Positions 5,876 to 46,289 of a stretch of DNA of 64,000 bases are shown here, in pieces. Positions within the stretch are counted from its first letter, which is position 1. Every line of letters begins with the position of its first letter. Under the pieces are notes generated by a model. That model saw only the letters and a list, made by a program, of their open reading frames with translations. It had not been told where the DNA came from and made no database searches. Location of the stretch: the NCBI GenBank assembly GCA_011525365.1, contig WTGQ01000002.1, positions 2,524,773 to 2,588,772 of the forward strand. Direction: 5' to 3'. A program made the translations under genes and the position numbers. This stretch comes from Acidobacteriota bacterium. GTDB taxonomy: Bacteria; Acidobacteriota; Thermoanaerobaculia; Multivoradales; Multivoraceae.

Positions 5876-6229
5876 GTGCCCTACATGGTCTACAAGCTCC
5901 TGCACGTGCTGGGAGCGGTCATGGTGCTTGCCGCCGCGGGCGGCGTGGCGGTTCACGCCGCAAACGGCGGTCGCAGGGAGGACAACCAACTGCGCGGCCT
6001 GCTCGCCGCCATGCACGGAGTCGGCCTGGTCCTGAGCGTCGTAGCCGGTTTCGGGATGCTCGGCGCCAGCCTGCCCGGTTGGGCCTGGGTGAAGCTGGTC
6101 ATCTGGTTGTGCTTTGGCGCCGCACTCACGCTGCCCTACCGCAACCAGGCCCTGGCCAAGCCTTTGGTCGTCATCCTGCCGCTGCTGGCGGCGGTCGCTG
6201 CCTACCTGTCGCTGTACAAGCCGTTCTGA
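5876..6229 (+). CDS. small integral membrane protein of unknown function
   Basis: A 117-aa ORF with three to four hydrophobic segments and high-GC codon bias. I found no recognisable family. Confidence 0.45.
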
Positions 6230-6357
6230 GTAGCTGACAGGGAGCGCTGGGGGCTCCGGTCAGATTCCCGTCAGGGAAAGGTCAGGCCACCGGCCCTGCC
6301 CCCGCGGCGAGAATCAGGAATCCGGGTCAAACCCCGGCTGTTTCCATTCGTAGATAT

Positions 6358-6438
6358 GAACGGGTCTGTGCCACAAAGGGGCAAGGCACGGACCCGTTCG
6401 GCGCCGGGCGGCGCGAGCGTGTCGTACCGCCCGGCGCC
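6358..6438. terminator. two consecutive GC-rich hairpins between convergent genes, likely bidirectional terminators
   Basis: GAACGGGTCTGTGCC-12 nt-GGCACGGACCCGTTC forms a 15-bp stem with one G·U pair. It is followed by GGCGCCGGGCGG-15 nt-CCGCCCGGCGCC, a 12-bp perfect stem. There are no T-runs, as expected for a high-GC genome. Confidence 0.4.
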
Positions 6439-6470
6439 ACCTTCGCTCCGGCGACGCTTCGTACCGGGCC

Positions 6471-7367
6471 TCACAGGAAGATGCAGGTCGGACAGTCGCC
6501 CGCTGCCGCCGCCAGCGCCCGGTCCGCCTCGCACTGGTACTCCGGGCTGCTCGACCGATAGCTCCGCGTGTCGCCGCATAGCATCGTCTCGCGTTTCCAG
6601 TCGTCGTCGCCCGACCAGCGATACGGCAGCATCTTCACGGCGCCCGGCTGCTCCAGCTCCCCAACGGCCGTGAGCGCGGCGGCGACGATCTCCCGCTGCA
6701 GCGCCGGGTCCTGCGCCTTCCCTGCCGTATGACCGAGGGGATAGTCGAGGAAGACGGCGCGCGGAGGATTGACCGAGCGGGTGATCGAGAGAGCGGAAGT
6801 CAGCGACGTCGTCGGAATCCCGTCCGCCTCGACCCGGCGCGCTATCAGTCCCACGGACTGATGGCAGACCGGTCACACGGGGACGAGCAACGCCAGGTCG
6901 ACCTCGTCCTCAGCGAGCCGGCGGCTGATCTCCGGCGCCAGTGCATCCCGAACGCGGCGGGCCGAGTAGATCCCTCCCATGAAGGCGTAGGCGCGCGGCG
7001 ACAGTTCCCCGATCACGCCCTCCGCCACGAGGGTCCGCAGCGTGTCGACCGGAAAGACGACGTTCGGGTCCGCACGCGCGTCGGTTTGGTCGTAGGCGAA
7101 GTGGCTCGTCCGCAGTTCCGAAACGGGAACCGACGTATCGATCACACGCAGCGAGATGTCGTCCCGATGATGGAAGGCGACCTGGCCCGCCCGATACACA
7201 CCACCGGAGCCCACCAGCCCCACTCGGCACTCGCGGAGAGGCTTCGCCAGCTCGGTCCAGGGCGGTGGGCCATCGTTGCGCACCCATCGATAGGGATCGT
7301 GGCCCAGGCTCGAGTAGAGGTCGCGCGTACGGACGATGTGGTCCACCGGCGGTCGTCGTGTCGTCAT
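6471..7367 (-). CDS. glycine/sarcosine/betaine/D-proline reductase component-B family selenoprotein (PrdB-like). The in-frame UGA at 6873..6875 is read as selenocysteine.
   Basis: ORFs 6873..7403 and 6471..6854 are in the same frame and separated only by TGA. The joined protein is ...DEVDLALLVPV-U-PVCHQSVGLIARRVEADGIPTT... This is collinear with PrdB recalled from memory: NcmFPiDrvrELaaEGvIG...FMGG, then DAaILTaG-U-GTChR...AGIPT, then PLgdP. The ATG at 7367 has a GGGAGA Shine-Dalgarno sequence 7 nt upstream. Confidence 0.75.
6844..6862 (-). promoter_or_regulatory. candidate bacterial SECIS stem-loop immediately 3' of the in-frame UGA
   Basis: The mRNA reads UGA-CCGGUCUGCC-AUCAGUCC-GUG-GGACUGAU. 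That is an 8-bp perfect stem starting 11 nt after the UGA, which matches the spacing bacterial SelB needs. Confidence 0.5.
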
Positions 7368-7420
7368 GCCCCATTCTCCCTGGTTCACGCCATTCTGCCC
7401 CAAGATAGGATGCCCGCTGC

Positions 7421-7849
7421 ATGACGACCGAGGACTGCCGAGCGAGCGGCCGGCTCAACCTCCCCGAATCCGAGTGGCGGGCAAGACTCGGCGACGAGGA
7501 GTTCCGGGTTCTGCGGCGGGAGGCAACCGAACGCCCCTTCACTTCGGCGCTCAACCACGAGGGCCGGAGCGGCATCTTCCTCTGCGCCGGCTGCGGCGCG
7601 GAGTTGTTCCGGTCGGGTGCGAAGTTCGAGAGCGGCACCGGCTGGCCCAGCTTCTTCGAGCCCATCGCCGGAGCCGTCGACACGAAGCGGGACTTCAAGC
7701 TGATCGTCCCCCGAACCGAGTACCACTGCTCCCGCTGCGGCGGGCACCAGGGCCACGTCTTCAGCGACGGACCGGAGCCAACCGGCCTGCGTTACTGCAA
7801 CAACGGCGTCGCCCTGCGCTTCCGGCCGGCGCCGGAAAGCGAGCCGTAA
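7421..7849 (+). CDS. msrB: peptide-methionine (R)-S-oxide reductase MsrB
   Basis: Two zinc-knuckle CxxC pairs (CAGCGAEL and CSRCGGHQGHVF) and the catalytic Cys in RYCNNGVAL, which is Cys rather than Sec. Length 142 aa. Confidence 0.9.
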   Translation: MTTEDCRASGRLNLPESEWRARLGDEEFRVLRREATERPFTSALNHEGRSGIFLCAGCGAELFRSGAKFESGTGWPSFFEPIAGAVDTKRDFKLIVPRTEYHCSRCGGHQGHVFSDGPEPTGLRYCNNGVALRFRPAPESEP

Positions 7850-7886
7850 ACCCGACACGACCCCCAAGGCGGGGAGGAGTAAGACG

Positions 7887-9500
7887 ATGTCGACCAAAGC
7901 GACAACCCGCCGAGCCGGCGGAGCGATCCTCGGGGCCGGCCTCGCGCTGACGCTTGCGTGCGGCGGTGAGCAGGTCGAGCCCCTCACCACGACCGTCAAC
8001 ACGGAGCTCGGCGCGGTCGAAGGCCAGGCGCTCGAGTCCGGAGTCTTCAAGTTCGCCGGTATCCCGTTCGCGGCGCCGCCGGTTGGCGACCTCCGCTGGC
8101 AGGCGCCCCAGCCGGCTGCCGCCTGGGAGGGCAGCCGCGACGCCACGCGGTTTTCCGGTAGCTGCTGGCAGCCACTCTCCCCACCCGGTTCCTTCTACGA
8201 CACCGGCGAGATCGAGCGCAGCGAGGACTGTCTCTACCTGAACGTCTGGACCGGCGCCGAACACGCCGAAGCAGCTCTTCCGGTCATGGTGTGGATCCAC
8301 GGAGGCGGCCTCCAGACCGGCTCTGGCAGCACTCTGCTGTACGACGGGGAGAGTCTGGCCGAGCGCGGCGTCGTGCTGGTGACGATCAACTACAGGCTCG
8401 GACCGATGGGCTTCCTGGCTCACGCGGAACTCTCGGCCGAAACCGAGTCGGGAGCGTCGGGGAACTACGGCATCCTGGATCAGGTCGCCGCGCTCCAGTG
8501 GGTCCAGGCGAACATCACCGCCTTTGGCGGAGACCCGGGCCGGGTCACGATCTTCGGCGAGTCGGCCGGTTCGTGGAGCGTCAACTACCTGACCGCGACG
8601 CCGCTCGCCGCGGGGCTGTTCCACCGCGCGATCGGGCACAGCGGCGGCATCTTCTGGCCCATGCCGCAGCTTGGAGACGCGGAGTCCGAAGGTGCGCGCG
8701 TCGCGGAGCGCCTCGGCGCCGGCGACCTCGCGGCCATGCGCGCCGCCACCGCCGAGGAGGTCTACGAAGCGGCCGGTGCGTCCGAAGCGCTTGTCTTCGT
8801 CGGCCTCAGCGACGGCCACGTGTTCCCGCGCGACATCCACGATCTGTTCGCCACCGGCGAGCAGAACGACGTCGACACGATCGTCGGCTTCAACAGCGAC
8901 GAGGGGACCGCCCTGTTCGCCGGTCCCGCCGGAACCACCGTCGCCGACTACCGGCAGTTGCTCGCGGACACCTATGGCGAGCACGCCGACGCGATGTTCG
9001 CCGTCTACCCCGCCGAGACCGACGAACAGGCACGGATCGCCGCCTACGAGAACACGGCCGACCAGTTCTTCGCCTGGCAGATGCGGACCTGGGCCAGGCT
9101 GCAGAACCGCACCGGACAACGACCCGTTCGAATGTACTTCTTCTCCCGGGTACCACCATGGGACGAGGCGGACACCTACGGTTCGTACCACGCGGCGGAG
9201 ATCGCCTACGCCTTCGACAACCTCCACCTCAGCGGCGAGTTGAGGGACGACATCGGCCCCTTCAACCACGCCTGGGACGAGACCGACCGGGCGCTCGCGG
9301 ACACGATGGCGAGCTACTGGGTGAACTTCGCGGCCACCGGCGACCCCAACGGCGACGGCCTGCCCGACTGGCCCGTCTACGATCCGGATGCCGACGGCGT
9401 CCTCGAACTGGGCGACAAGATCGGCGTCATCCAGGGCCTGCTCAAGGATCGGCTGGACGCCTTCGACGCCTACTACGAGGACCTGCGCGGGAACGGGTAG
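7887..9500 (+). CDS. carboxylesterase type B family lipoprotein (para-nitrobenzyl esterase-like)
   Basis: Lipobox LTLACGG. Type-B esterase motifs EDCLYLNVW, the nucleophile elbow GESAGSWSV and VMVWIHGGG. GGAGGAG Shine-Dalgarno sequence. Confidence 0.9.
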   Translation: MSTKATTRRAGGAILGAGLALTLACGGEQVEPLTTTVNTELGAVEGQALESGVFKFAGIPFAAPPVGDLRWQAPQPAAAWEGSRDATRFSGSCWQPLSPPGSFYDTGEIERSEDCLYLNVWTGAEHAEAALPVMVWIHGGGLQTGSGSTLLYDGESLAERGVVLVTINYRLGPMGFLAHAELSAETESGASGNYGILDQVAALQWVQANITAFGGDPGRVTIFGESAGSWSVNYLTATPLAAGLFHRAIGHSGGIFWPMPQLGDAESEGARVAERLGAGDLAAMRAATAEEVYEAAGASEALVFVGLSDGHVFPRDIHDLFATGEQNDVDTIVGFNSDEGTALFAGPAGTTVADYRQLLADTYGEHADAMFAVYPAETDEQARIAAYENTADQFFAWQMRTWARLQNRTGQRPVRMYFFSRVPPWDEADTYGSYHAAEIAYAFDNLHLSGELRDDIGPFNHAWDETDRALADTMASYWVNFAATGDPNGDGLPDWPVYDPDADGVLELGDKIGVIQGLLKDRLDAFDAYYEDLRGNG

Positions 9501-10721: not shown

Positions 10722-12110
10722 ATGCGGTCACCTGACACCGTTCCGGCAACGTCGCCGCGGCCGAGGCAGATCCTGGCGGCGGCAGCGATCGGTATCACGG
10801 CGGCCCTGCTGGTTCTGCGCTGGACGGCGCCGGACAACACGACCGCCCCTTCCGGCAGCGCATCCCGCGGCGTCCCGGCTCCCCTGCCAGCCCGCCCGGA
10901 GCCCGAGCCGCCGCCGCCCCTGCCTCGCGAACTCAGCGATGCTCTCGACCTGATGGCTCAGGGAAGACTCCGTGAAGCGCAGCGCCTGATGCTCAGCTTC
11001 GACGCCAGTCCTGCCGCCCTGGAACTGCTGCCCGACCATCGGGAGACCATGAACGCAATGCTGGAGCGCCTCGGGAAAGAGCCGGTCCTGCTGGCTGCCC
11101 TGGAGTTCGAGGGCGGCTTCGAGGATGCCGACCTCGACCGGCTTCGCCGAGCGCTTGGCTCACTGTCGCGCGAGCGGATGATCGCCCTCCGGCGTGACCC
11201 GCAGGCATCGCGCCACGTCGACGACGCGCGACGGCTGACCTCGGAGGTCGACGCGATCGAGGGACTGCTGGGCAGCGACCGGCTGGCGGCGCTCCGGCTG
11301 GCCCAGGACTTCGCGCGGCGACACCCGCGATTCGCGGCCGGCCTCGCCTTCGAGGATCGCGCCGCCGAGGCGATCGAGGAAACGGCCGGGCGGTTGATGG
11401 CGGCGAACCGCCTGGAAGAGGCCCGAACGCTGCTGCTCGAACTCAGATCGCTTCGCGGCGACTCGGCCGAGGAGGCCACGTCCGTCGATGCCAGGCTGGC
11501 TTCCATCGACTCGGTGTTCCAGCGACGGAGCGACCTGGACGCCGCGATCCGTGAGATCGAGATGCTGGGTCGGAAACGACCACACGAGGCGCTGGAGGTT
11601 CTCGCCGCCATGGGGCGGACACCCGAGAACGGTCGTCGTCTGGCCCAGGTGGAGTCCACTCTCAGGTTCCTGCTGGACGATCTCGACCAGGGAAGCCCCG
11701 CCGTCGAGATACTGGCCGCGAACGGTTCGAGCCTGGACCAGATCGAGTACGACCGCCGCGAGGATCTGGTGCTGCTGGTTCGCGCCCGGGACGACTACGA
11801 GGTGGTTTCGGTGCGTTTCTTCTGGCGTTGGTTCGACCGCGAAGGGGAAGGCGATGTCGTCGAGGCGATACTCAGGCCGGTCGACCCTGAGCCGGCGCCC
11901 GCCGCGGACGCCGCAGGCGACGCCAGAACCACCGAGATCGCCTTCAAGGCGACGGTTACACAGCCCGAACACGGGGGCCGGAGCATTCAGTTCTGGGCCG
12001 AGGCGACCGACCGTGGCGGCCGCGTCGCGAGAAGCGACGACCCGCCGAGACAACTCACTCCTGCGCGGCGCGGGTTCCTGCAGCGGCTCGGCCTTCGCCG
12101 CCGCCAGTGA
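10722..12110 (+). CDS. hypothetical protein with an N-terminal membrane anchor
   Basis: Transmembrane helix ILAAAAIGITAALLVL, a Pro-rich linker, then a helical Ala/Leu/Arg-rich body. I prefer it over the antisense ORF 11160..12146 because of consistent GC3 bias and the signal-anchor. Confidence 0.45.
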   Translation: MRSPDTVPATSPRPRQILAAAAIGITAALLVLRWTAPDNTTAPSGSASRGVPAPLPARPEPEPPPPLPRELSDALDLMAQGRLREAQRLMLSFDASPAALELLPDHRETMNAMLERLGKEPVLLAALEFEGGFEDADLDRLRRALGSLSRERMIALRRDPQASRHVDDARRLTSEVDAIEGLLGSDRLAALRLAQDFARRHPRFAAGLAFEDRAAEAIEETAGRLMAANRLEEARTLLLELRSLRGDSAEEATSVDARLASIDSVFQRRSDLDAAIREIEMLGRKRPHEALEVLAAMGRTPENGRRLAQVESTLRFLLDDLDQGSPAVEILAANGSSLDQIEYDRREDLVLLVRARDDYEVVSVRFFWRWFDREGEGDVVEAILRPVDPEPAPAADAAGDARTTEIAFKATVTQPEHGGRSIQFWAEATDRGGRVARSDDPPRQLTPARRGFLQRLGLRRRQ

Positions 12111-28860: not shown

Positions 28861-28945
28861 GTTGTGTCACACCTATGCACCTCAACACGGTTTGTGTAAC
28901 ACTTCGAGGCCACAAGTGCGACACAAGCCTGTTTGTCGTACACAG
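28861..28945 (+). promoter_or_regulatory. array of four GTGTnACAC-type near-palindromic motifs upstream of the fic gene (operator-like)
   Basis: GTGTCACAC at 28864, GTGTAACAC at 28894, GTGCGACAC at about 28915 and GTCGTACAC at about 28934. Spacings are 30, 21 and 19 bp. The array ends about 40 bp before the fic ATG. Confidence 0.4.
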
Positions 28946-28986
28946 ACGTTCCACAAAGAGCGCGACGCCAGGAGTCAAGAAGCACG

Positions 28987-30102
28987 ATGTCTCCCGTCCA
29001 CTACCAACCCGGCAGCTTCCCGCCAGACGAGCGCCTCGACTGGGCCGAACTCGTACCGCTGATTGGCCCCACCACGGCTGCAATCGCCCGCTACGACGGC
29101 TTACTCGAAGCCGTGCCCAACCCCGATGTCCTGCTTGCGCCGCTCGGAACCCAGGAAGCCGTGCTCTCGTCCCGGATCGAGGGCACTCAGGCTACCGCCC
29201 GCGAGGTCCTAGAGTACGAGGCTGGACAGGAAGCGCCCTCTTCGGAGCGGAGGAACGACTTCGTCGAGGTCCTGAACTACCGACTCGCGATGCGCGAAGC
29301 AGAGCAGTTGCTGAGGAAGCTACCAATCTGCCTCAAAGTCGTTCGGCAAACGCATCGGGTTCTCCTTCGTGGAGCACGCGGCAAAGGGCGCGACCCAGGC
29401 GAGTTCCGCCGGTTACCGAACTGGATCGGCCCCCCCGACTGCACAGTCGAAGAGGCGCGCTTCGTGCCGATCGAGGCCGACAAGCTCATGGCCGGCCTCG
29501 ATCGATGGGAGAAGTACCTCCACGAGGAGACTCGGGACCAGTTAGTTCAGCTCGCTGTCATACACGCCGAGTTCGAGGCTCTGCACCCGTTCCTCGACGG
29601 TAACGGCCGTCTGGGTCGCATGCTCGTGCCTCTCTACCTCGCCGAGAAGAGCCTGATTCGGCGGCCGATGTTCTACATCAGTGCCTTCCTTGAAGCGAAT
29701 CGCGACGCCTACTACGAAGGACTCCTCGCAGTCTCCCGCGATGACGACTGGACAGGCTGGTGCCGCTTCTTCCTAGAGGCCCTGCGCACGCAAGCGGAGG
29801 ACAACATCGCCAAGGCGAGAAGAATCCTGAGTCTGTACGACCGGATGAAGCACCATGTAACCGACCTCACTCACTCCCAGTACGCCATCAGTTCGCTGGA
29901 CTTCATCTTTGAGTCTCCGGCGTTCAGCAGCACACGTTTCATCGCACACGAGAAGGTGCCCGCTCCCGCCGCTCGCCGCATCCTGAACGCACTCCGCGAT
30001 GACGGCGTGTTGAGAACGGTGCTCCCAGCCAGCGGCCGCCGGCCCGCGATCTTCGTCTTCGACGAACTCCTCGAAGTCGCCGAGGGTCGCGCGACCGAGT
30101 AA
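28987..30102 (+). CDS. Fic family protein (class II Fic with an N-terminal inhibitory helix)
   Basis: Fic motif HPFLDGNGRLGRM. Upstream (S/T)xxxE(G/N) inhibitory motif SSRIEG. ATG at 28987. Confidence 0.85.
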   Translation: MSPVHYQPGSFPPDERLDWAELVPLIGPTTAAIARYDGLLEAVPNPDVLLAPLGTQEAVLSSRIEGTQATAREVLEYEAGQEAPSSERRNDFVEVLNYRLAMREAEQLLRKLPICLKVVRQTHRVLLRGARGKGRDPGEFRRLPNWIGPPDCTVEEARFVPIEADKLMAGLDRWEKYLHEETRDQLVQLAVIHAEFEALHPFLDGNGRLGRMLVPLYLAEKSLIRRPMFYISAFLEANRDAYYEGLLAVSRDDDWTGWCRFFLEALRTQAEDNIAKARRILSLYDRMKHHVTDLTHSQYAISSLDFIFESPAFSSTRFIAHEKVPAPAARRILNALRDDGVLRTVLPASGRRPAIFVFDELLEVAEGRATE

Positions 30103-30125
30103 CCTCGCCGACTCAACAAACGCTG

Positions 30126-32985
30126 ATGAGACTAGCTTGGCAGGAGATCCGCCCACGCGCCGCCGCGTTCGCCCGCGACTGGGCCGACGCCGGCTACGAG
30201 AAGGGCGAGACGCAGAGCTTCTACAACGCCTTCTTCCGCATCTTTGGCGTCGAGCGGCGCAGCGTCGCCCGCTACGAGGAGCAGGTCAAGCGGCTGGACG
30301 ACTCGCAGGGGTTCATCGACTTGTTCTGGCCGGGCGTGCTGCTGGTCGAGCAGAAGAGCGCCGGCCGCGATCTCGTGGCGGCGCGCCGTCAGGCGCTGTC
30401 TTACTTCGACGCCCTCCCGGAGCGCGAGCGGCCTCGCTATCTGCTGTTGTGCGACTTCCAGAACTTCGAACTGCTCGACCTGGACGAAGGCGAGGAAGCG
30501 CGGTTCACGCTGGCCGAGTTGCCCTCCAACGTGGAGAAGTTCGGCTTCATCCTCGGGGTCCAGAAGCGGACCTTCCGCGACGAGGACCCGGTCAACGCGG
30601 AGGCCGCGAAGCTGATGGCGGATCTCCACGACCGGCTGCTCGAGGTCGGCTACGGCGGTCGGGAGCTGGAGTTGTTCCTTGTCCGGATCGTGTTCTGCCT
30701 GTTCGCCGACGACACGGGCATCTTCGAGCGGCGCGACATCCTGCTCGAGCTGCTGGAGCAGCGAACCTCACCGGACGGCAGCGACTTGGGCGGCAGGTTG
30801 GCGCATCTCTTCCAGGTCCTGAACACGCCCGAAGCCAGCCGTCAGGCGACCCTGGACGAGGACCTGGCCCGCTTCCCGTACATCAACGGCGACCTGTTCG
30901 CGGAGACCCTGCCGATCGCCGACTTCGACTCCGCGATGCGCAGAGCGCTGCTCGATGCTTGCCGCTTCGACTGGACCGAGATCTCGCCGGCGATCTTCGG
31001 GACGCTGTTTCAGTCGGTCATGGAACCGGAGGAGCAGCGGATCAAGGGCAGCCACTACACGTCGGAGGCGAACGTCCTGAAGGTCATCGAGCCGCTGTTC
31101 CTGGACGACCTGCGGGCCGAGTTCTTGAGGCTCCGGCGGAGCCGAGGCACGCGGCGCAACGCCGAACTCCATGCCTTCCGGCAGCGACTCGGCCGGATGC
31201 GTTTCCTCGATCCGGCCTGCGGTTGCGGCAACTTCCTGGTCATCGCCTACCGGGAACTGCGCCAGCTCGAGATCGAGGTGCTCCGGGAACTCTTCCCGTC
31301 GCGCCAGCTCGGCCTCCTTGCTGACGCTCTGTCCCTCGTGAACGTGGATCAGTTCCACGGCATCGACCTCGACGAGTTCCCGAAACGGATCACGGAGATC
31401 GCGCTCTGGATGATGGACCACATCATGAACAACAGGCTCAGCCTGGAGTTCGGGGAGGCCTACGCGCGGATCCCGCTGGAGAGCTCACCGCAGATCCCTG
31501 CGCGGTGACGCTCTGGAGGTCGACTGGGACGACGTCCTTCCGCCGGAAGAGTGCTCCTTCGTGCTCGGCAATCCGCCCTTCGGCGGTGCCAAGCACCAGA
31601 CCGAGGAACAGCGGGCGCAGGTGCATCGCATCGCGGATCTCGGCAAGAGCGGCGGCACCTTGGACTACGTCACGGCCTGGTTCCTGAAGGCCGGCGAGTA
31701 CCTGCACCAAGGAATCGAGACCCAGCGCCGGTCCAGGGATCCAGCTGCAGCCGCCAATACGGTCCGGCCGCTCCGGATCGGTTTCGTCGCCACGAACTCG
31801 ATCACTCAGGGCGAGCAGGTCGGCCAATTGTGGCCGTTGATCTTCGACCGTCTGGGACTCGAGATCGCTTTCGGCCACCGGACGTTCGCCTGGAAGTCGG
31901 ACATCAAGAAGAAGGCGAACGTCCATGTCGTGATCGTCGGCCTCACGCTAGCGACCGACACCCCCAAGGATCGTCGGTTGTTCTCTTATCCCGACGTCAA
32001 GGGGAGTGCCGAGGAGAGCCGCCACGCTGCGATCTCGCCGTATCTCGTTGACGCCGGCGGACTCGCCGACCCGCATCTCGTCGTGCGGGAGACGGCAGAG
32101 CCGCTCAACGGCTGGCCGCGTCTCGCTAGCGGCAGCCAGCCCATCGACGACAGGAACTACATCTTCACCGACGACCAGCGGGCTACGTTCCTGGAACAAG
32201 AACCCGGGGCCGCGAAGCACTTGCGCCCCTACGTTGGCGGCGGTGACTACATACAGCGCCACTCCCGTTGGATCCTCGCCCTTCAGGACGCCGAGCCAGA
32301 GGAACTAGCAGCCTTGCCCTTCGTGGTGCAGCGGATCAAGGCTGTCAGGGAGTTCAGGTCAAGGAGCAAGAGGAAGGGCACGCTCGCGATCGCCAACTCT
32401 CCCCGAAGCTACAACGTCGAAGTCCTGCCCACGTCGCCCTTCCTCATCGTCCCCGAGGTCAGCTCCGAGCGCCGCGACTACGTGCCGATCGGCTGGCTTG
32501 AACCCCCGACCATCCCGAGCAACACAGCCCGCATCATCGAGAATGCGACCAAGCCGCTCTTCGCCCTGCTGACCTCCGCCATGCACATGGCCTGGCTGCG
32601 CGTGATCGGCGGCCGCCTGGAGAGCAGGTACCGATACTCGATCGGCTTGGTCTACAACCCCTTCCCGGCGCCGGCGGCGGACGCGGAAGTGCTCAACGAG
32701 AAGCTCGCGCCCTTGGCCAACGCCGTACTCGCAGCCCGCGCAGCGCACCCCGGCGCAACGCTGGCCGAACTCTACGACCCGGACCTCATGCCCGACGACC
32801 TCCGCCGCGCCCACCAGGCCATCGACCGTGCCGTCGACCGCCTCTACCGCCCGCGCCGCTTCTTATCGGAGAACGAGCGGCTGGAGCACCTGCTCTCCCT
32901 CTACGAGAAAACGATCGCCCCCATCTCCGCCGCGGCCCAGCCCAAGCGAAAGCGACGCCGCCGGAGGACGGTCGCGCGCAGATAG
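30126..32985 (+). pseudogene. MmeI-family type IIL restriction-modification enzyme (endonuclease-methyltransferase-TRD fusion), disrupted by a frameshift near 31495-31510
   Basis: N-terminal PD-ExK FIDLFWPGVLLVEQKS. Methyltransferase motif I LDPACGCGNFLV. Motif IV GNPPFGG, with the preceding RGDALEVDWDDVL in the +1 frame. The first frame stops at 31506-31508, and the second frame is open upstream through the junction. Confidence 0.65.
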
Positions 32986-33052
32986 CCGGGGTTGGCGTCC
33001 TGGAGCAGTCGCGTTCAGTCGCCGACGGGAGGCTAGAGCTAGAGTCCGGTTC

Positions 33053-34492
33053 ATGTCCCAGCGGCCCCCTGGCACCGAGCCGATTCTCCTCGAGAATGCA
33101 GTGCGGTTGCGCCCGGCCACGGCGGTCGACAGTGGCACCTGCGAACGTGACGTCATCGCGCGGGCGGAGATTCGGCTCCTGCCGAAGCCGGGCCTCGCAC
33201 TCATCGCGGACGACACTCCTTTCCGCCTCGATTCGGCCAAGGAGCCCTGGACCCTGGTTCAACCCAAGACCTCTGGAGAGCTGTTCGACGTCACGCCGCA
33301 ACCATCTCCTTCATCGCCGCCGGAGGACAAACTCAGGCAGTTCTTTGAGATCTTCGAAGCCACCGGCCACGAAACCGTAAGTCGTCAATCGACAGCCGAC
33401 GCAAGGGAACCGACACGGTGGAACCTAGTGTTTCTACCCCGACGTGCGCCCATCGTCGTTGAAAGGCGTCGAGAAGCTGCCAAGCGACTTGAACTCGAGA
33501 TTCTCAACTTCCCCGTCTTCGGGGGTGACGCGACGAAGGCGGTGCAACTCCCTGGCGGAATCTACCGGATCGGCCATCTGGCGGTCGAAGCGGCACCCTG
33601 GAAGATCGAGTTCACCGAGAGGCCCGGGCTAGGCAGCGTCAGGGCGGAGTTGAATGCAAGCCGCGGGTTCGCAACGACCCACGAGGCAAGAATCGACAGA
33701 GCGGACGGCGGTCCAATCGAGAAAGAGGAAGCTCAGCGTCTCTTGGAAGCGCTCGACCGGTTTCTCTCCTTCACGCGAGGAGTCGGATGCGCCACCGCGG
33801 TTGTAAGGGCGTTCTCGGGTGACGACGCCGTCGTCTGGGAACAGTGGGGCTGTCGGCAGGTGGCGCCTTGGCGCCCTGAACCAGACTCCTGGTTCGACTT
33901 GGAGCATGGGCGAGTCCTTGCCGAGGCCTTCTCCGCCTTCCTTCGTACTTGGGAAACGTGCCACGAGAAGCGGGCCGCCCTTCGCGAGGCGATCTACTGG
34001 TACCTCACAGGACACTGGGAGAACAGTCGAGTGGACGGCGGCCTCATCCTGCTACAGGCGGCGATGGAGCGCCTTGCACATACCTTCTACCGCCCGAAGC
34101 GCTGGAAGGGAAAGGAGAGGGAGACAAGCGGGCAGTGGCTTCGGATGGCCCTTGAGCGAGCTGGAATCCCGGTGGAAGCGCCAGCCAGCTTCAAAGCCCT
34201 CGGCACGTTCGCCGACGGCTTGAGCTGCCCGAAGGGAGAGAAAAGAGACGCCGTGTTTGCGATGACGCAGGCGCGAAACAACGCCGTTCACCCAAGGAAG
34301 GAAACGGAAGTCGCGGGCAGCCTCTACTTCCAAGCCTGGACCCTGGCTCGTTCCTTCGTGGAGCTCATGGTACTAAGTGCCATCGGCTACCAAGGCCCCT
34401 TCGCCAATCGCCTGCGGGAGGGAAGGGTGGAACTCGTGCCCTGGGCGCAGACCAAGAAGCTCCAGTCGGCAATCACACACGGCGCCGAGTAG
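33053..34492 (+). CDS. hypothetical protein, 479 aa, with a C-terminal helical domain carrying a HEPN-like RNxxxH motif
   Basis: ATG at 33053. Lies 67 nt after the MmeI-like gene. The motif is AMTQARNNAVHPRKE inside a predicted all-helical C-terminal 180 aa or so. I recognise no family. Local GC (about 59%) is lower than the flanks. Confidence 0.45.
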   Translation: MSQRPPGTEPILLENAVRLRPATAVDSGTCERDVIARAEIRLLPKPGLALIADDTPFRLDSAKEPWTLVQPKTSGELFDVTPQPSPSSPPEDKLRQFFEIFEATGHETVSRQSTADAREPTRWNLVFLPRRAPIVVERRREAAKRLELEILNFPVFGGDATKAVQLPGGIYRIGHLAVEAAPWKIEFTERPGLGSVRAELNASRGFATTHEARIDRADGGPIEKEEAQRLLEALDRFLSFTRGVGCATAVVRAFSGDDAVVWEQWGCRQVAPWRPEPDSWFDLEHGRVLAEAFSAFLRTWETCHEKRAALREAIYWYLTGHWENSRVDGGLILLQAAMERLAHTFYRPKRWKGKERETSGQWLRMALERAGIPVEAPASFKALGTFADGLSCPKGEKRDAVFAMTQARNNAVHPRKETEVAGSLYFQAWTLARSFVELMVLSAIGYQGPFANRLREGRVELVPWAQTKKLQSAITHGAE

Positions 34493-34518
34493 TGGGTCGG
34501 CGATCCCGAGCAGCGGAG

Positions 34519-35421
34519 ATGGCTCTGTGTGCGGAAGACGCGTTGCTCGCCGCCATCGAGATCTACAACAAGCCTCGAGTCGCCTACCGCGAGCAGACGC
34601 TGGCGCTCCTCCTGGTGAATGCCTGGGAGATCCTCCTGAAGGCGCGTGTCGTTCAGATGCACGGCAACAATCTGGCGGCGATCTACAGGCGGGAGCGAGG
34701 GTCCAAGCGATTCAGAAGAGCCAGATCGGGGAGAATCCTCACGGTCAGCCTTAGAGAGGCCGCCGAGAAGGCTCAGGTGGCCGATCAGGTGCGAAGCAAC
34801 CTGGAGGGACTCTGCGAGATCAGGGACGAGGCGGCGCATCTGGGCAACCTAGGGTCCGAGTTCAGGGAACAGACGCTGAAGCTTGGTTCAGCGGCGGTTC
34901 GGAACTTCGTTGTAGCTGTTGGCCGATGGTTTGGCCGGCAGGTTGAGGCACCTCACTTCCTGCCGCTTGGCTTCCTCAATCAAGCGGATCTGGTAAGGCC
35001 GGCCAACGTGCGGCAGAGAGAACTCCTGGACTATCTGAGGAAGCTGACTTCGGACCAGACACCATCGGACTCCGGGTTCACCGTGAGCTTGCGTGTCGAC
35101 GTTCTGCTGAACCCGGAGTTCTCCGGCGGTGGCACGATCGGTGTCACGAACAACCCAGCCGCGCCGAAGGTGCACCTGACGGACACGCAAGCTCTCGAGC
35201 GGTATCCGCTGACGTACGAGGATCTCGTAGAGGAGTGCCGCGCCCTGATTCCGAACCTCAAGCAGAACCAGTCGTTTCACGAGGCGATGAAGACAGTGAA
35301 GAGTGACGCTAACCAAGCGCTCGAGAGGCGGCTGAATCCGCAGAAGCCCGGAGGTACGAGGAAGTTCTTCTACGCCAGGACGGCGCCGGGCCGTCTCCGG
35401 CACCTCCTGCGAGGTGACTGA
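34519..35421 (+). CDS. hypothetical protein, about 300 aa, with an N-terminal four-helix HEPN-like domain (Rx4H: EIRDEAAHLGN)
   Basis: The ORF 34492..35421 overlaps the stop of the upstream gene. The probable start is the ATG at 34519. It has a conserved-looking helix AIEIYNKP...LALLLVNAWEILLKA and an Rx4H motif. I can place it in no named family. Confidence 0.45.
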   Translation: MALCAEDALLAAIEIYNKPRVAYREQTLALLLVNAWEILLKARVVQMHGNNLAAIYRRERGSKRFRRARSGRILTVSLREAAEKAQVADQVRSNLEGLCEIRDEAAHLGNLGSEFREQTLKLGSAAVRNFVVAVGRWFGRQVEAPHFLPLGFLNQADLVRPANVRQRELLDYLRKLTSDQTPSDSGFTVSLRVDVLLNPEFSGGGTIGVTNNPAAPKVHLTDTQALERYPLTYEDLVEECRALIPNLKQNQSFHEAMKTVKSDANQALERRLNPQKPGGTRKFFYARTAPGRLRHLLRGD

Positions 35422-42042: not shown

Positions 42043-44049
42043 TCAGGGGGAGCCGGTAGCCGCTGCGCCGGATGCCGCCGTCAGCGGGAACTCCTCCACG
42101 CCGTACTCGGCCAGGATCGAGGCCGCCAGATCGGTAATGGCGGGGGCCGGCCTGGCAAGGGGCCGGCTGGTGAACAGCACCCCCGGCACGACCCGGTGAT
42201 CCATCATGTGATCGCCGCTCCAGGCGCCGTCGTTGTCCGAGAACACCTCGCCGACGACCTTCCCCGTCGCTGATTCGGTCGATCCCCGGTAGCCTTTGGC
42301 ATAGCCGATGATCAGGTCGGGGCCGACGGCCGCCGGCTCCTGGAAGGCATAGTCGGCGCGACGCTTGACCTCCGTGATCGCGCGTTCGCCCGTCGCGGGA
42401 TCGACCACGGCCAGCAGTTCCGTTCTCAGTTCCTCGATCAGCTCGAGCCTCTCCGCCGCGGTCACGACGCCCTCCCGCTCGCGGCCGCGCAGATTGACAT
42501 AAAGACCCGTGAAGCCGATGCCGTAGGCCCGGGTTCCCTCCCAGTCGACGTTGAGCAGGAAGTCCGGGTCGTTGTAGGCATCCGGGTCCTTCGCCCGCAG
42601 GTAGCCCTTCTCGAGCAGCCAGGCGTTCAGGTGGAAGGTACGCCGCCAGGAGGCGAAGCCATGGTCCGACATGGCGACGACAAGCGGCTCGTCCTCACCA
42701 CCGTCGCCCAGTCCCGCCGCCGCTTCGAGACGGTCGAGCGTCTGCCCGACGATCGCGTCGAGGCCTTCGTAAAGGGTCGGGATCAGGTCGGCATGGGCCG
42801 CGTCGGTTTCGGGATCGTAGGCCGGATGCTCCGGATCGCGCGAGCGCCAGCGCACATGGCCGATCAGGTCCACGTTGCCGAAGTAGTAGAAGAGGAAACC
42901 GCCGGGCTCCTCCAGGAATCGATCCAGCACGTAGCCGTACTGCTCCACCACTTCGTCGCCGGCGATCTTCGCCTGGGCCAGGAACTCCTCCGGAGTGAAC
43001 ACGCCTTCGGTCAGGGTCTTCGTGTCCTCGGGCATCCCTTCGGTGTAGAACCGGTCCACCTCCTGGGCGAGTTCGGCCGCGAAGTCGGGCGGCGTCGAGA
43101 TCGGGGCCGATGGGGCCATCGGATCGTGGTCGATGGGGCTCACGTAGAGCTCGAACTCCGGCTCCAGCGCCCGTAGGTACATACGGCAGATTCCCCGCAG
43201 GTGCTGGGTCGGCATCATCTCGAAGTCGACCTCGAGCCAGTCGCTCCACTCCCCGACCTGGAGCACGATCTGCTGATCGCCGAGTTCGATCTTGGCGCTC
43301 GCGGCCTCCGGATCGATGTAGACGGTGAAGGGCGCGGTCAACTGCTCCGGTTCCTGCAGCAGCGGATTCTCGGGGCCGAGCAGCTCCGCCTCGACGACGT
43401 TGTCGTAGATGTCCAGCTCGACGATGTCGCCGCCGCTGACCTCGCGGTCGGCGAAGAGTTCCGAGGTGTAGAACGAGAACGTGCCGTCCGTGCCGAGGAT
43501 GTCGCTCGTCCCCATCCCCGAAAGCTCGCGACTGGCCGTGCCCGAAACCGGGAAGTTCGCCGGCATGCGGATCACCTGCGTCCGCACACCGTGCTCCTCC
43601 AGCACCTCCCAGAACGGCGTGCCGTGCCGAAAGTGCGTGTACTCGCCGCTGGTGAGCGGGAACTGCCAGCGTCCCACCTTCAGGAACCGGCCTCCCGCGG
43701 ACGAACCGGCGGTAGAGGAGTACGGAATCAGCGTCTCCGGATCGGAGTGGAGGAAGTCGAAGATGCCGTGGCCGCCCGGGTCCATTCCGGTGATGAAGCT
43801 CGACCAGGCGACCGGGCTCTGCGGCGGGACCGTCGTCCGGAGTTGGGCGAAGGTGCCCATCGCCTCCAGCCGGGCGAAGTTCGGCAACCGACCCTCGTCG
43901 ATCAACTGGCGCGTCAGCGCGTGGTCCAGGCCGTCGAAGCCGAGAACGACGACCTTCGGCCCCCTGGAAGGGCCGACGCCTCCACCGCCGCAAGCGAGGA
44001 GCAGGGCGGCCGAGAGAACCGCCGCCGTCGCCAGACGTGAACGCTTCAC
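42043..44049 (-). CDS. type I phosphodiesterase / nucleotide pyrophosphatase family lipoprotein (alkaline-phosphatase superfamily)
   Basis: Lipobox LLLACGGG. AlkP-core motifs VVLGFDGLD, SPVAWSSFITG and AMSDHGF. Confidence 0.8.
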   Translation of the reverse strand: MKRSRLATAAVLSAALLLACGGGGVGPSRGPKVVVLGFDGLDHALTRQLIDEGRLPNFARLEAMGTFAQLRTTVPPQSPVAWSSFITGMDPGGHGIFDFLHSDPETLIPYSSTAGSSAGGRFLKVGRWQFPLTSGEYTHFRHGTPFWEVLEEHGVRTQVIRMPANFPVSGTASRELSGMGTSDILGTDGTFSFYTSELFADREVSGGDIVELDIYDNVVEAELLGPENPLLQEPEQLTAPFTVYIDPEAASAKIELGDQQIVLQVGEWSDWLEVDFEMMPTQHLRGICRMYLRALEPEFELYVSPIDHDPMAPSAPISTPPDFAAELAQEVDRFYTEGMPEDTKTLTEGVFTPEEFLAQAKIAGDEVVEQYGYVLDRFLEEPGGFLFYYFGNVDLIGHVRWRSRDPEHPAYDPETDAAHADLIPTLYEGLDAIVGQTLDRLEAAAGLGDGGEDEPLVVAMSDHGFASWRRTFHLNAWLLEKGYLRAKDPDAYNDPDFLLNVDWEGTRAYGIGFTGLYVNLRGREREGVVTAAERLELIEELRTELLAVVDPATGERAITEVKRRADYAFQEPAAVGPDLIIGYAKGYRGSTESATGKVVGEVFSDNDGAWSGDHMMDHRVVPGVLFTSRPLARPAPAITDLAASILAEYGVEEFPLTAASGAAATGSP

Positions 44050-46289
44050 GCTGCCGCTCCGGCCGCACCGCCTGCAAGGCCTGCCGGGTCGAAGACCGAC
44101 TCGCCCTCCATGTAGTCCGGCTTGTCGACTCCGAACAGGGCCAGCGCCGTCGGCGCCATGTCGAGCAGCGACAGGTCGTCCTCCCGGTCCACAGGCCGGC
44201 TGCTGAAGAAGACGCCGGGCACGAGCCGCGGATCGACGCAGTGGTCTCCGCTCCAGGCTTTCGTGTTGTCGGCGAAGAGCGGCCCCGCCACGACACCGAC
44301 GGCGCAGTCCCAGGACACCCGGTAGCCGTCGTTGTAGCCGACGATCAGGTCGGGGGCGTTGCCCTTGTAGGGACCCGTGTACAGGTCCTCGGCGTCGAAG
44401 GCGGCATTGATGCCGACGGCGCGCCGCTCCTCGTCGCGCAGGCCGGTCCAGGCCGCGATGAGTTCACGTTTGAGCGTCCTCGCCTCTTCGCCGGGCTTCA
44501 CGATGCCGGAAGCCTCCCGGCCCTCCAGGTTCAGGAACACGCCGGCGAGCCCGAGCGCATAGGCGCGCGTGCGCGACCAGTCCACGCCCTCCAGCCACTC
44601 CTCGCTTCCGTCCGCGTCCTCGCGAAGGACGAGGTAGCCATGGTCAAGCAGCCAGCGATTCAGGTTCACGCCGCGACGGAAGGAAGCGAAGCCATGGTCC
44701 GAGAGCACGATGAGAAGATCGTCGTCGCCCAGCTTCTCCATCACCCGGCCGACCAGGGCGTCGTTGTGCCGGTAGTGCTCCTCGATCGTCCGGCGCTGCT
44801 TGCCCGTCTTGCGGCCGTTCGCGGCCGGGTGTCCGTCTTCCATGTAACGCCAGAACATGTGCTGGATCCGGTCGGTGGCGTCGAAGACGCAGGTCAGGGA
44901 GCCCTTGCGCAGTCGCTCGAGCGCGGCGAAGAACATCTCCTCGCGCTCGCGGTCGATGTCGTACGACTGCTTGAGGAACGTCACGTCGTCGGTCACCCCC
45001 TCGTTGAGCGCCGTCGTGTCCTCGGCGAGGCCGAGGGTGGCGAAGTCGCCGAGCCGCTTGGACAGGTACGGAGCGTAGTAGGAGGGGTGGGAAATCGGCA
45101 TCGCCGGCTTCTCCGGATCGATGTGGATCGCGGTCAGGTAGAGGGACGTGTGCTTGCCCGCCTCCGTCAGCATCATCCGGGTCAGACCGTGGACCTTGAC
45201 TCCGGGCGCCGCCCGGAACTCCAGGCGGACCCAGTCCGAGAGCTGGCCCCGGCCAAGCTCGACTGTCTCGCCCGCCACTTCGACCGTCGCGGACCCGGCC
45301 TTGCGGTCGATCTGCACCGTCATCGGCAGACGAAGCGGCGGCGGCGGATCGCCCTCCAGGAAGCTGTTCTCCGGTCCCTCGATCACGCAGTCGAAGTGGT
45401 CGGGGCCGGCGCCGTTCGAGGTCAGCGGCACCCGGACACCGCCCTCGCGGATCGCCTCAGTCGCCGGCCGGGTCGTGTAGTAGAGAAAGGTCCCCTGGCT
45501 GCCGACCAGGTCCGGCACGCACATCGCAGCCAACTGGGCGCCGTAGAAACGGTCCGGCGGGAAGGTGATCGGAACCCGGAGCACCGTGCTCCAGATGTTT
45601 CGCTCGCCGAGCACGGTCCAGAACGGCTTCGACCGCCGCAGCATGCGGATCTCCGGCTTCTGTAGCGGGATCTTCCACTTGCCCAGCTTCAGGAACCGTT
45701 CCACCCGGCCGATGTGGGCCGAGGAGAGCTTCGGCAGGTAGCTGCGCAGGTCCCGGTCGAGGAAATCGAAGATGTTGTGCTTGCCCGGATTGGCGCCGGT
45801 CGCGAAGGTCGACCAGGCGACCGGGGACAGCGCCGGGTAGGTGCTGGCGATTCGCCGGTAGCTGCCCTGACTGCTGAGGCGCTTGAAGTTGGGCAGCCTG
45901 CCCTCCTTCATCATCCGCTCGGTCAGTCGAGGGTCCTGGCCGTCGAGTCCAACGAACACGAGTCGCTTGACGTGCGCCTTCGGCGGCTTCTTCCGCCGCA
46001 CCACCCGCCACAGGGTCCGCACCGGCCAGGCAAGCAGCGAGAGGAACGCAAGCGCCACCGTCGCCAGCAGCACCAGGAACGACGACATCAGCGCGAACCC
46101 CGCCCCCGGACCAATGTAGGCGGCCGCCGGCGCGGCGGCGAAGAGCGCCGCCAGAAGCGCCAGCGCGACGGTTGCAGGACGCGGAGCTGGCAACGGTTCC
46201 TCCAATAGTCGCGCGCCTGGGACACGGGGTGCCAGGCAGCGCGGAGCGGTGCGGAGCATACCAAGCCACGGGTAGCATCCCGGGGTCAT
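44046..46289 (-). CDS. type I phosphodiesterase / nucleotide pyrophosphatase family protein, membrane-anchored paralogue of the preceding gene
   Basis: Same motif set (VFVGLDGQD, SPVAWSTFATG, LSDHGF). Its stop overlaps the paralogue's start. The maximal ORF begins at 46289. The true start is probably internal (46259 or 46088), with the YIGPGAGFALMSSFLVLL transmembrane region retained. Confidence 0.7.
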   Translation of the reverse strand: MTPGCYPWLGMLRTAPRCLAPRVPGARLLEEPLPAPRPATVALALLAALFAAAPAAAYIGPGAGFALMSSFLVLLATVALAFLSLLAWPVRTLWRVVRRKKPPKAHVKRLVFVGLDGQDPRLTERMMKEGRLPNFKRLSSQGSYRRIASTYPALSPVAWSTFATGANPGKHNIFDFLDRDLRSYLPKLSSAHIGRVERFLKLGKWKIPLQKPEIRMLRRSKPFWTVLGERNIWSTVLRVPITFPPDRFYGAQLAAMCVPDLVGSQGTFLYYTTRPATEAIREGGVRVPLTSNGAGPDHFDCVIEGPENSFLEGDPPPPLRLPMTVQIDRKAGSATVEVAGETVELGRGQLSDWVRLEFRAAPGVKVHGLTRMMLTEAGKHTSLYLTAIHIDPEKPAMPISHPSYYAPYLSKRLGDFATLGLAEDTTALNEGVTDDVTFLKQSYDIDREREEMFFAALERLRKGSLTCVFDATDRIQHMFWRYMEDGHPAANGRKTGKQRRTIEEHYRHNDALVGRVMEKLGDDDLLIVLSDHGFASFRRGVNLNRWLLDHGYLVLREDADGSEEWLEGVDWSRTRAYALGLAGVFLNLEGREASGIVKPGEEARTLKRELIAAWTGLRDEERRAVGINAAFDAEDLYTGPYKGNAPDLIVGYNDGYRVSWDCAVGVVAGPLFADNTKAWSGDHCVDPRLVPGVFFSSRPVDREDDLSLLDMAPTALALFGVDKPDYMEGESVFDPAGLAGGAAGAAA

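Follow-up and report, generated by a model that had tools for sequence, protein, structure and literature searches.

Two adjoining ORFs on the minus strand of the 64-kb stretch of acidobacterial DNA analysed here (the window), 6873..7403 and 6471..6854, raise the question of whether they are two genes or a single gene that is read through an in-frame UGA. Read directly from the sequence, one frame of 298 codons runs from 7367 to 6474 (−) and is broken only by the TGA at 6875..6873; the upstream ORF (7403/7367→6876) ends at this TGA and the same frame then resumes with P-V-C-H-Q-S-V-G-L-I-A-R. The mechanical ORF list starts the upstream ORF at a TTG at 7403, the likely start being the ATG at 7367, and GC3 was coding-like in both halves (0.80-0.86, in a genome of 68% GC). 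The locus very probably encodes a single selenoprotein of 298 residues, from a stand-alone 'PrdB-like' branch of the GrdB/PrdB superfamily. The features of the locus are as follows.

7421..7849, plus strand: msrB, methionine-R-sulfoxide reductase of the Cys type, divergent (Pfam SelR; context only)
7376..7380, minus strand: Shine-Dalgarno-like GGGAG read from the sequence, 8 nt upstream of the ATG, presumed to function as such
6876..7367, minus strand: CDS part 1, codons 1-164 (MTTRRPP...DLALLVPV), called as a separate 164-aa protein
6873..6875, minus strand: in-frame UGA, predicted Sec codon 165 of U-P-V-C-H-Q (TGA in 85/85 loci, Cys/Thr in full-length homologues)
6474..6872, minus strand: CDS part 2, codons 166-298 (PVCHQSVGLIAR...CPTCIFL), from tblastn matches and invariant residues
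Within CDS part 2, minus strand: 127-aa ORF called by gene callers, starting at the GTG of a hairpin loop
6483..6494, minus strand: C-terminal C-P-T-C, codons 292-295, a Sec-form-specific tail by comparison of homologues
6471..6473, minus strand: true stop TGA, read from the sequence

Conservation of the in-frame UGA

A search covering 5.8 billion proteins returned matches of two classes, the first consisting of products of about 164 aa that ended exactly at ...LLVPV, and the second of full-length homologues of 280-315 aa in which both halves formed one protein, the UGA column being occupied by Cys and, in a few, by Thr. A profile search at E ≤ 1e-3 gave 3007 cluster representatives, drawn from the superfamily as a whole, and many of the best profile matches stopped at the Sec column or started just after it. 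Scanning of genomes, at one genome per species, yielded 80 loci (85 in the count of the TGA column), with tblastn matches running across residues 1-298 for most of the 80. These loci came from Acidobacteriota, Gammaproteobacteria, Binatia, Chloroflexi, Myxococcota/Deltaproteobacteria, Gemmatimonadota, Methylomirabilota and Spirochaetes, the window's own clade being labelled Holophagales, Thermoanaerobaculia or 'Ca. Multivorans' among the acidobacterial loci. All 85 had TGA at the column, followed by PVCHQSVGL[IVA][AG]R, and the same column was occupied by Cys (44) or Thr (5) in 49 full-length homologues. Residues C168, H169, Q170, R177, P201-R203, D208, W251, W257 and R271 were invariant and common to the full-length homologues. 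On a neighbour-joining tree the 82 Sec forms grouped together, with 5 Thr and 5 Cys forms inside the same clade.

Thr at the Sec/Cys column (T-P-V-C-H-Q) was seen in a few of the nearest full-length homologues, comprising P0002, P0003, P0004 and P0009 together with L087 (codon 6577-6579) and L091 (codon 4493-4495).

Every gene caller splits the region into products of 164 and 127 aa, which is what would be expected if the TGA were a real stop, whether produced by a nonsense mutation, a pseudogene or a sequencing error, or standing between two separate genes. The TGA is, however, present at each of the 85 loci across many phyla, the downstream half stays in frame and is conserved at the protein level, full-length homologues encode the two halves as one protein, and the hairpin described below has as its apical loop the very GTG (6854..6852) at which the second ORF is annotated to 'start'. 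A real stop is already contradicted by these comparative data, and we regard it as barely credible. By its sequence, the pair of ORFs is one gene for a selenoprotein, a predicted PrdB-like redox protein; the preliminary description had joined them across an in-frame UGA, and the unbroken 298-codon frame and the retention of the TGA at every locus bear it out.

The stem-loop downstream of the UGA

Downstream of the UGA an 8-bp hairpin, AUCAGUCC-GUG-GGACUGAU, was found at 6862..6844 (−), and it extended to an interrupted stem of roughly 16 bp (6872..6834). A SECIS-like hairpin at this distance had been proposed beforehand, and its 8-bp stem does start at the 11th nucleotide after the UGA. Its parts are listed here.

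6834..6872, minus strand: SECIS-like stem-loop, lying within codons 166-178 (from fold z-score and covariation)
6862..6855 with 6851..6844, minus strand: core stem, with the apical loop GUG at 6854..6852
6866..6864 with 6842..6840, and 6872..6868 with 6838..6834, minus strand: lower stems

A 71-nt stretch folded at -38.3 kcal/mol (z = -2.86), with 2 of 200 shuffles folding equally well. Across 78 distinct sequences, 97.2% of the cells of an 11-pair stem were paired, compared with 25-41% in slid controls in which the partner was shifted by 1-3 columns. Two pairs showed compensatory changes: in 6 sequences U-A had become C-G, with Ile replaced by Val in the protein, and in 4 sequences G-C had become A-U, where both codon changes were synonymous (CAG/CUG to CAA/UUG). 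Loop bases G28 and U29 were invariant and the third loop base was variable. All 8 core pairs were kept in 74 of the 77 distinct Sec-form sequences, and 3-6 of the 8 in six genes of the Cys and Thr forms; in the Thr form L087 the peptide HQSVGLI was identical but other codons were used and the hairpin was lost. As the hairpin is lost in Cys and Thr forms, selection at the RNA level acts only where the UGA is present, and such UGA-linked selection is the signature of a bacterial SECIS element.

The stem-loop lies directly 3' of the UGA with a G-U apical loop within 16-37 nt downstream, as in elements of the SelB type. Insertion of Sec at codon 165, directed by SelB and the putative SECIS element, is strongly supported by these comparisons. 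A ribosome would reach UGA-165, the stem-loop, with its G-U apical loop 19-21 nt downstream of the UGA, would recruit SelB carrying Sec-tRNA(Sec), and Sec would be inserted, with translation running on to the TGA at 6473..6471.

The UGA might also be recoded as something other than Sec, either as Cys by a tRNA-Cys(UCA)/SelB-like system or under a variant genetic code. Systems that recode Sec to Cys are on record for some bacteria, and none of selA, selB, selD and tRNA-Sec was found within the 64 kb of the window. Against such recoding, TGA is the stop codon of about half of the long ORFs in the window, the selenoprotein gene itself included, which marks the code as standard, and a variant code is not the explanation because TGA is an ordinary stop elsewhere in the genome. 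Both the position of the hairpin and its G-U loop are, moreover, those expected of a SelB-type element, and an environmental survey catalogues the family as a selenoprotein family (PMC2398784). Recoding to a residue other than Sec is in our judgement highly unlikely, and Sec is the residue assigned to codon 165 in what follows.

Two further candidates in the window were rejected. Scanning the window for other recoded genes brought up one more TGA, at 11160..11162 (−), with coding-like flanks in one frame; it is antisense to a called gene of 462 aa (10722..12107, +) and is a compositional shadow, not a recoding site. An 87-nt 'tRNA-Trp (cca)' reported by ARAGORN at 43919..44005 (−) was no tRNA by Rfam and falls within the stretch that encodes the N-terminal part of a Phosphodiest-family ORF (42046..44049), and it is probably a false positive.

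Family assignment and genomic neighbourhood

For profile scoring of the joined protein, U was replaced by C. Pfam GRDB (PF07355) matched residues 79-162, in CDS part 1, with E = 3e-12 and 46.9 bits against a cut-off of 22 bits, and TIGR01918 (selenoprotein B subfamily) was passed narrowly, with 66.3 bits against 65.45. Scores fell short of both equivalog models: TIGR04483 (PrdB) gave 169.2 bits against a cut-off of 300 (9.7e-50, model positions 17-234 of 238), and TIGR01917 (GrdB, ~430 aa) gave 62.5 bits against 602, over model positions 265-420 only. A true PrdB equivalog, P0176 (453 bits with TIGR04483), was 32% identical to the window protein and lacked its last ~50 residues, and C-G-T-C-H-R of P0176 aligned with U-P-V-C-H-Q of the window, in the [U/C]-x-x-C column. 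Membership of the PrdB/GrdB family and the placing of the UGA at the Sec/Cys column of that family, both put forward in the preliminary description, are upheld by these scores and this alignment. From its sequence, the window protein has the size of PrdB and belongs to the GrdB/PrdB superfamily, but is not a PrdB or a GrdB in the strict sense.

PrdB (TIGR04483; Clostridium sticklandii / C. difficile) is collinear with the window protein over nearly the whole model and shares its [U/C]-x-x-C-H motif at the same column. Unlike PrdB, the window protein carries a C-terminal extension of ~50 residues (W-K...P-x-Y-Q...D-R and a CxxC tail), and unlike the PrdB locus, no prdA (pyruvoyl subunit), prdC, prdD, prdE or prdF lies near its gene. 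The B proteins of glycine, sarcosine and betaine reductase (GrdB/GrdF/GrdH; PF07355, TIGR01918) are homologous to it in their C-terminal half, whereas the N-terminal half of GrdB, of roughly 200 residues, is missing from the window protein, and no grdA, grdE, grdC or grdD is found near its gene. 'Stand-alone' is a correct term for it because prdA, grdA, grdE, grdC and grdD were not seen.

For partner genes, the ±6 kb flanks of 80 loci were searched, with ORFs clustered within ±5.5 kb and adjacent genes scanned with Pfam. No reductase partner family was among the top Pfam families of the immediately adjacent genes, and the 52 Sec-form loci outside the window's (Multivorans) clade had no conserved neighbour. 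At these 52 loci the most frequent neighbour cluster was a short-chain dehydrogenase (9/52 within ±5.5 kb), and 88 immediately adjacent genes were spread over 91 Pfam families. Among the close neighbours on the same strand were enoyl-CoA hydratase, acyl-CoA dehydrogenase (at two loci), short-chain dehydrogenase, an AsnC regulator and pirin. Within the window itself, the Pfam annotation held no prdA, grdA or grdE domain, in agreement with the earlier statement that no reductase partner is present.

The gene might still be a genuine D-proline reductase PrdB, or the GrdB of a glycine or betaine reductase, with its partners elsewhere in the genome: TIGR04483 is its best NCBIfam match (9.7e-50) over almost the full model, and close homologues are named PrdB by JGI. 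This is countered by the 169 bits scored against an equivalog cut-off of 300, by the low identity to a true PrdB combined with the extra C-terminal extension, by the lack of a conserved partner gene around the 80 genome loci, and by the host taxa, which to judge from their names are largely of lineages not known for Stickland fermentation. We consider a genuine PrdB or GrdB very unlikely, and a stand-alone PrdB-like protein remains the preferred reading.

The msrB gene (7421..7849, +; Pfam SelR) is divergent from the selenoprotein gene, as first described. It was kept as a neighbour in 26 of 28 loci of the window's clade and was not kept in other lineages. This arrangement hints at co-regulation with oxidative-damage repair in the window's lineage. 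The start codons of the two genes are 53 nt apart (7368..7420), and with so short a spacer the promoters must overlap each other's leader or coding region; a simple sigma-70 promoter and terminator scan of 6200..7900 gave no match.

The Cys forms had a different setting. All seven that were fetched were translationally coupled to the upstream gene, with overlaps of 4-17 nt, at the following loci.

L086, 4880-6903: Cys form
L088, 4751-6891: Cys form
L089, 2794-4915: Cys form
L092, 1779-3903: Cys form
L093, 1784-3891: Cys form
L090, 1292-3124: Cys form
L094, 1850-3867: Cys form

Five loci had an upstream family III CoA-transferase (CoA_transf_3; 2 of the 5 are close relatives), and two had an IclR regulator and then an acyl-CoA dehydrogenase. 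Two Thr forms were fetched and both stood beside CoA-related genes, one following an ADP-forming acyl-CoA synthetase-like gene and the other, L091, flanked by ThiS-ThiF on one side and a 4HBT thioesterase on the other. The operons of the Cys paralogues give a hint of CoA-thioester chemistry for the Cys branch, and also hint at an alpha-substituted acyl-CoA or carboxylate as the substrate. The hint of an acyl-CoA comes mainly from the Cys paralogues, because Sec forms outside the clade share no conserved neighbour.

The C-terminal tail, predicted chemistry and earlier records of the family

A C-terminal CxxC was present in 81 of 82 Sec-form loci versus 0 of 49 full-length Cys/Thr homologues, and was placed a few residues from the C-terminus (CPTCIFL, CPTCVFL, CATCVWL, CEVCEVS). 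Among loci L005-L085, exactly three hydrophobic residues followed the second Cys (C-[VI]-[FW]-L) in 31. The Cys homologue P0015, which is without the tail, was modelled confidently with AlphaFold2 (pLDDT 92.8, pTM 0.92). The model predicted a Rossmann-like alpha/beta fold in which a strand (162-166) stands directly before the Sec/Cys position and the CHQ of U-x-x-C-H-Q opens a helix (170-185). Sequence queries of the PDB gave nothing at E ≤ 10, whether the protein alone or a profile was used.

The chemistry of the Sec-form branch is predicted here by its likeness to PrdB and GrdB, in which a selenolate nucleophile is resolved by a nearby Cys (PMC13188914). By analogy with these two enzymes, the selenolate would attack the substrate and Cys168 would resolve it to a Se-S bond. 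Because the CxxC is exclusive to Sec forms, the tail dithiol C292/C295 is proposed as an internal shuttle that would pass oxidising equivalents to thioredoxin or glutaredoxin, and with such a shuttle the enzyme would need neither a pyruvoyl partner (PrdA/GrdE) nor protein A. Cascade thiol/disulfide reductases with a mobile C-terminal redox pair include thioredoxin-coupled ArsC and, with a GCUG tail, the large thioredoxin reductases. The Sec forms would resemble these in having an active-site chalcogen pair and a terminal-tail Cys pair that could pass oxidising equivalents on to an external reductant, but they have no homology to them, and the likeness is one of proposed mechanism only.

We offer tentatively, as a possibility with the balance well against it, that the Sec-form branch is a self-contained selenol/thiol relay reductase (U165-x-x-C168 and C292-x-x-C295) that cleaves an alpha-substituent without a pyruvoyl subunit or protein A. 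A C-N, C-O, C-S or C-halogen substituent would then be cleaved from a carboxylate or an acyl-CoA. Were this so, the protein would be a pared-down, oxygen-tolerant relative of the Stickland reductases, and its abundance, among the highest of any selenoprotein in oxic oceans, would be explained.

The family itself has been on record for some time. A UxxC 'proline reductase PrdB' was the third most abundant known selenoprotein family of the Sargasso Sea in 2005 (PMC1088965), the 2008 GOS data held 235 Sec sequences and 110 Cys homologues of the PrdB family (PMC2398784), and Anaeromyxobacter dehalogenans and Geobacter uraniireducens were recorded as having the family (PMC1794560). As described there, the family of Zhang and Gladyshev is like the window gene in pfam07355 membership, UxxC motif, Cys homologues and wide environmental distribution, its members having been predicted from an in-frame UGA and a SECIS element. 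These surveys treat it as proline reductase, and its likeness to the window gene is one of description; their passages on PrdB, PrdA and proline reductase make no mention of the C-terminal CxxC tail or of Cys-form operons with CoA-transferase or ACAD genes. Literature on stand-alone 'PrdB-like' or 'GrdB-like' proteins was found only in the form of papers on fluoroacetate in Synergistota.

The preliminary description had called the gene a stand-alone GrdB-family selenoprotein; the stand-alone part holds, with no partner in the window, while the family was already catalogued (PMC1088965, PMC2398784). It is a selenoprotein family catalogued since 2005, of which the window gene is a mis-annotated member, and this will not surprise a specialist. 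Public records of the clade's gene, among the cluster members examined, have 164-167 residues or are extended upstream, every public copy from the clade being truncated at the UGA, and their names are given as hypothetical, as 'GrdB family protein' or as 'PrdB'. For annotation, one selenoprotein gene should take the place of the two ORFs 6873..7403 and 6471..6854. The stand-alone PrdB-like family has been among the most abundant predicted selenoproteins of marine metagenomes for twenty years, and several experimental handles on it are now available, namely a putative SECIS element within the H-Q-S-V-G-L-I codons that is conserved across many phyla, a CxxC tail confined to Sec forms, and Cys paralogues coupled to CoA-transferase and acyl-CoA dehydrogenase genes. 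The hairpin, the tail and the Cys operons are none of them a new kind of system.

Elsewhere in the window, an MmeI-family restriction-modification gene was split over two frames (30126..31505 and 31561..32982, +) and had as its neighbours a Fic gene (28933..30099) and, with a similarly lower GC3, a DUF3644 gene (34492..35418). The region 28933..35418 (+) has the look of a small defence island, possibly in decay. Tandem paralogues of the type I phosphodiesterase / nucleotide pyrophosphatase family lay back to back at 42046..44049 and 44049..46289 (−).
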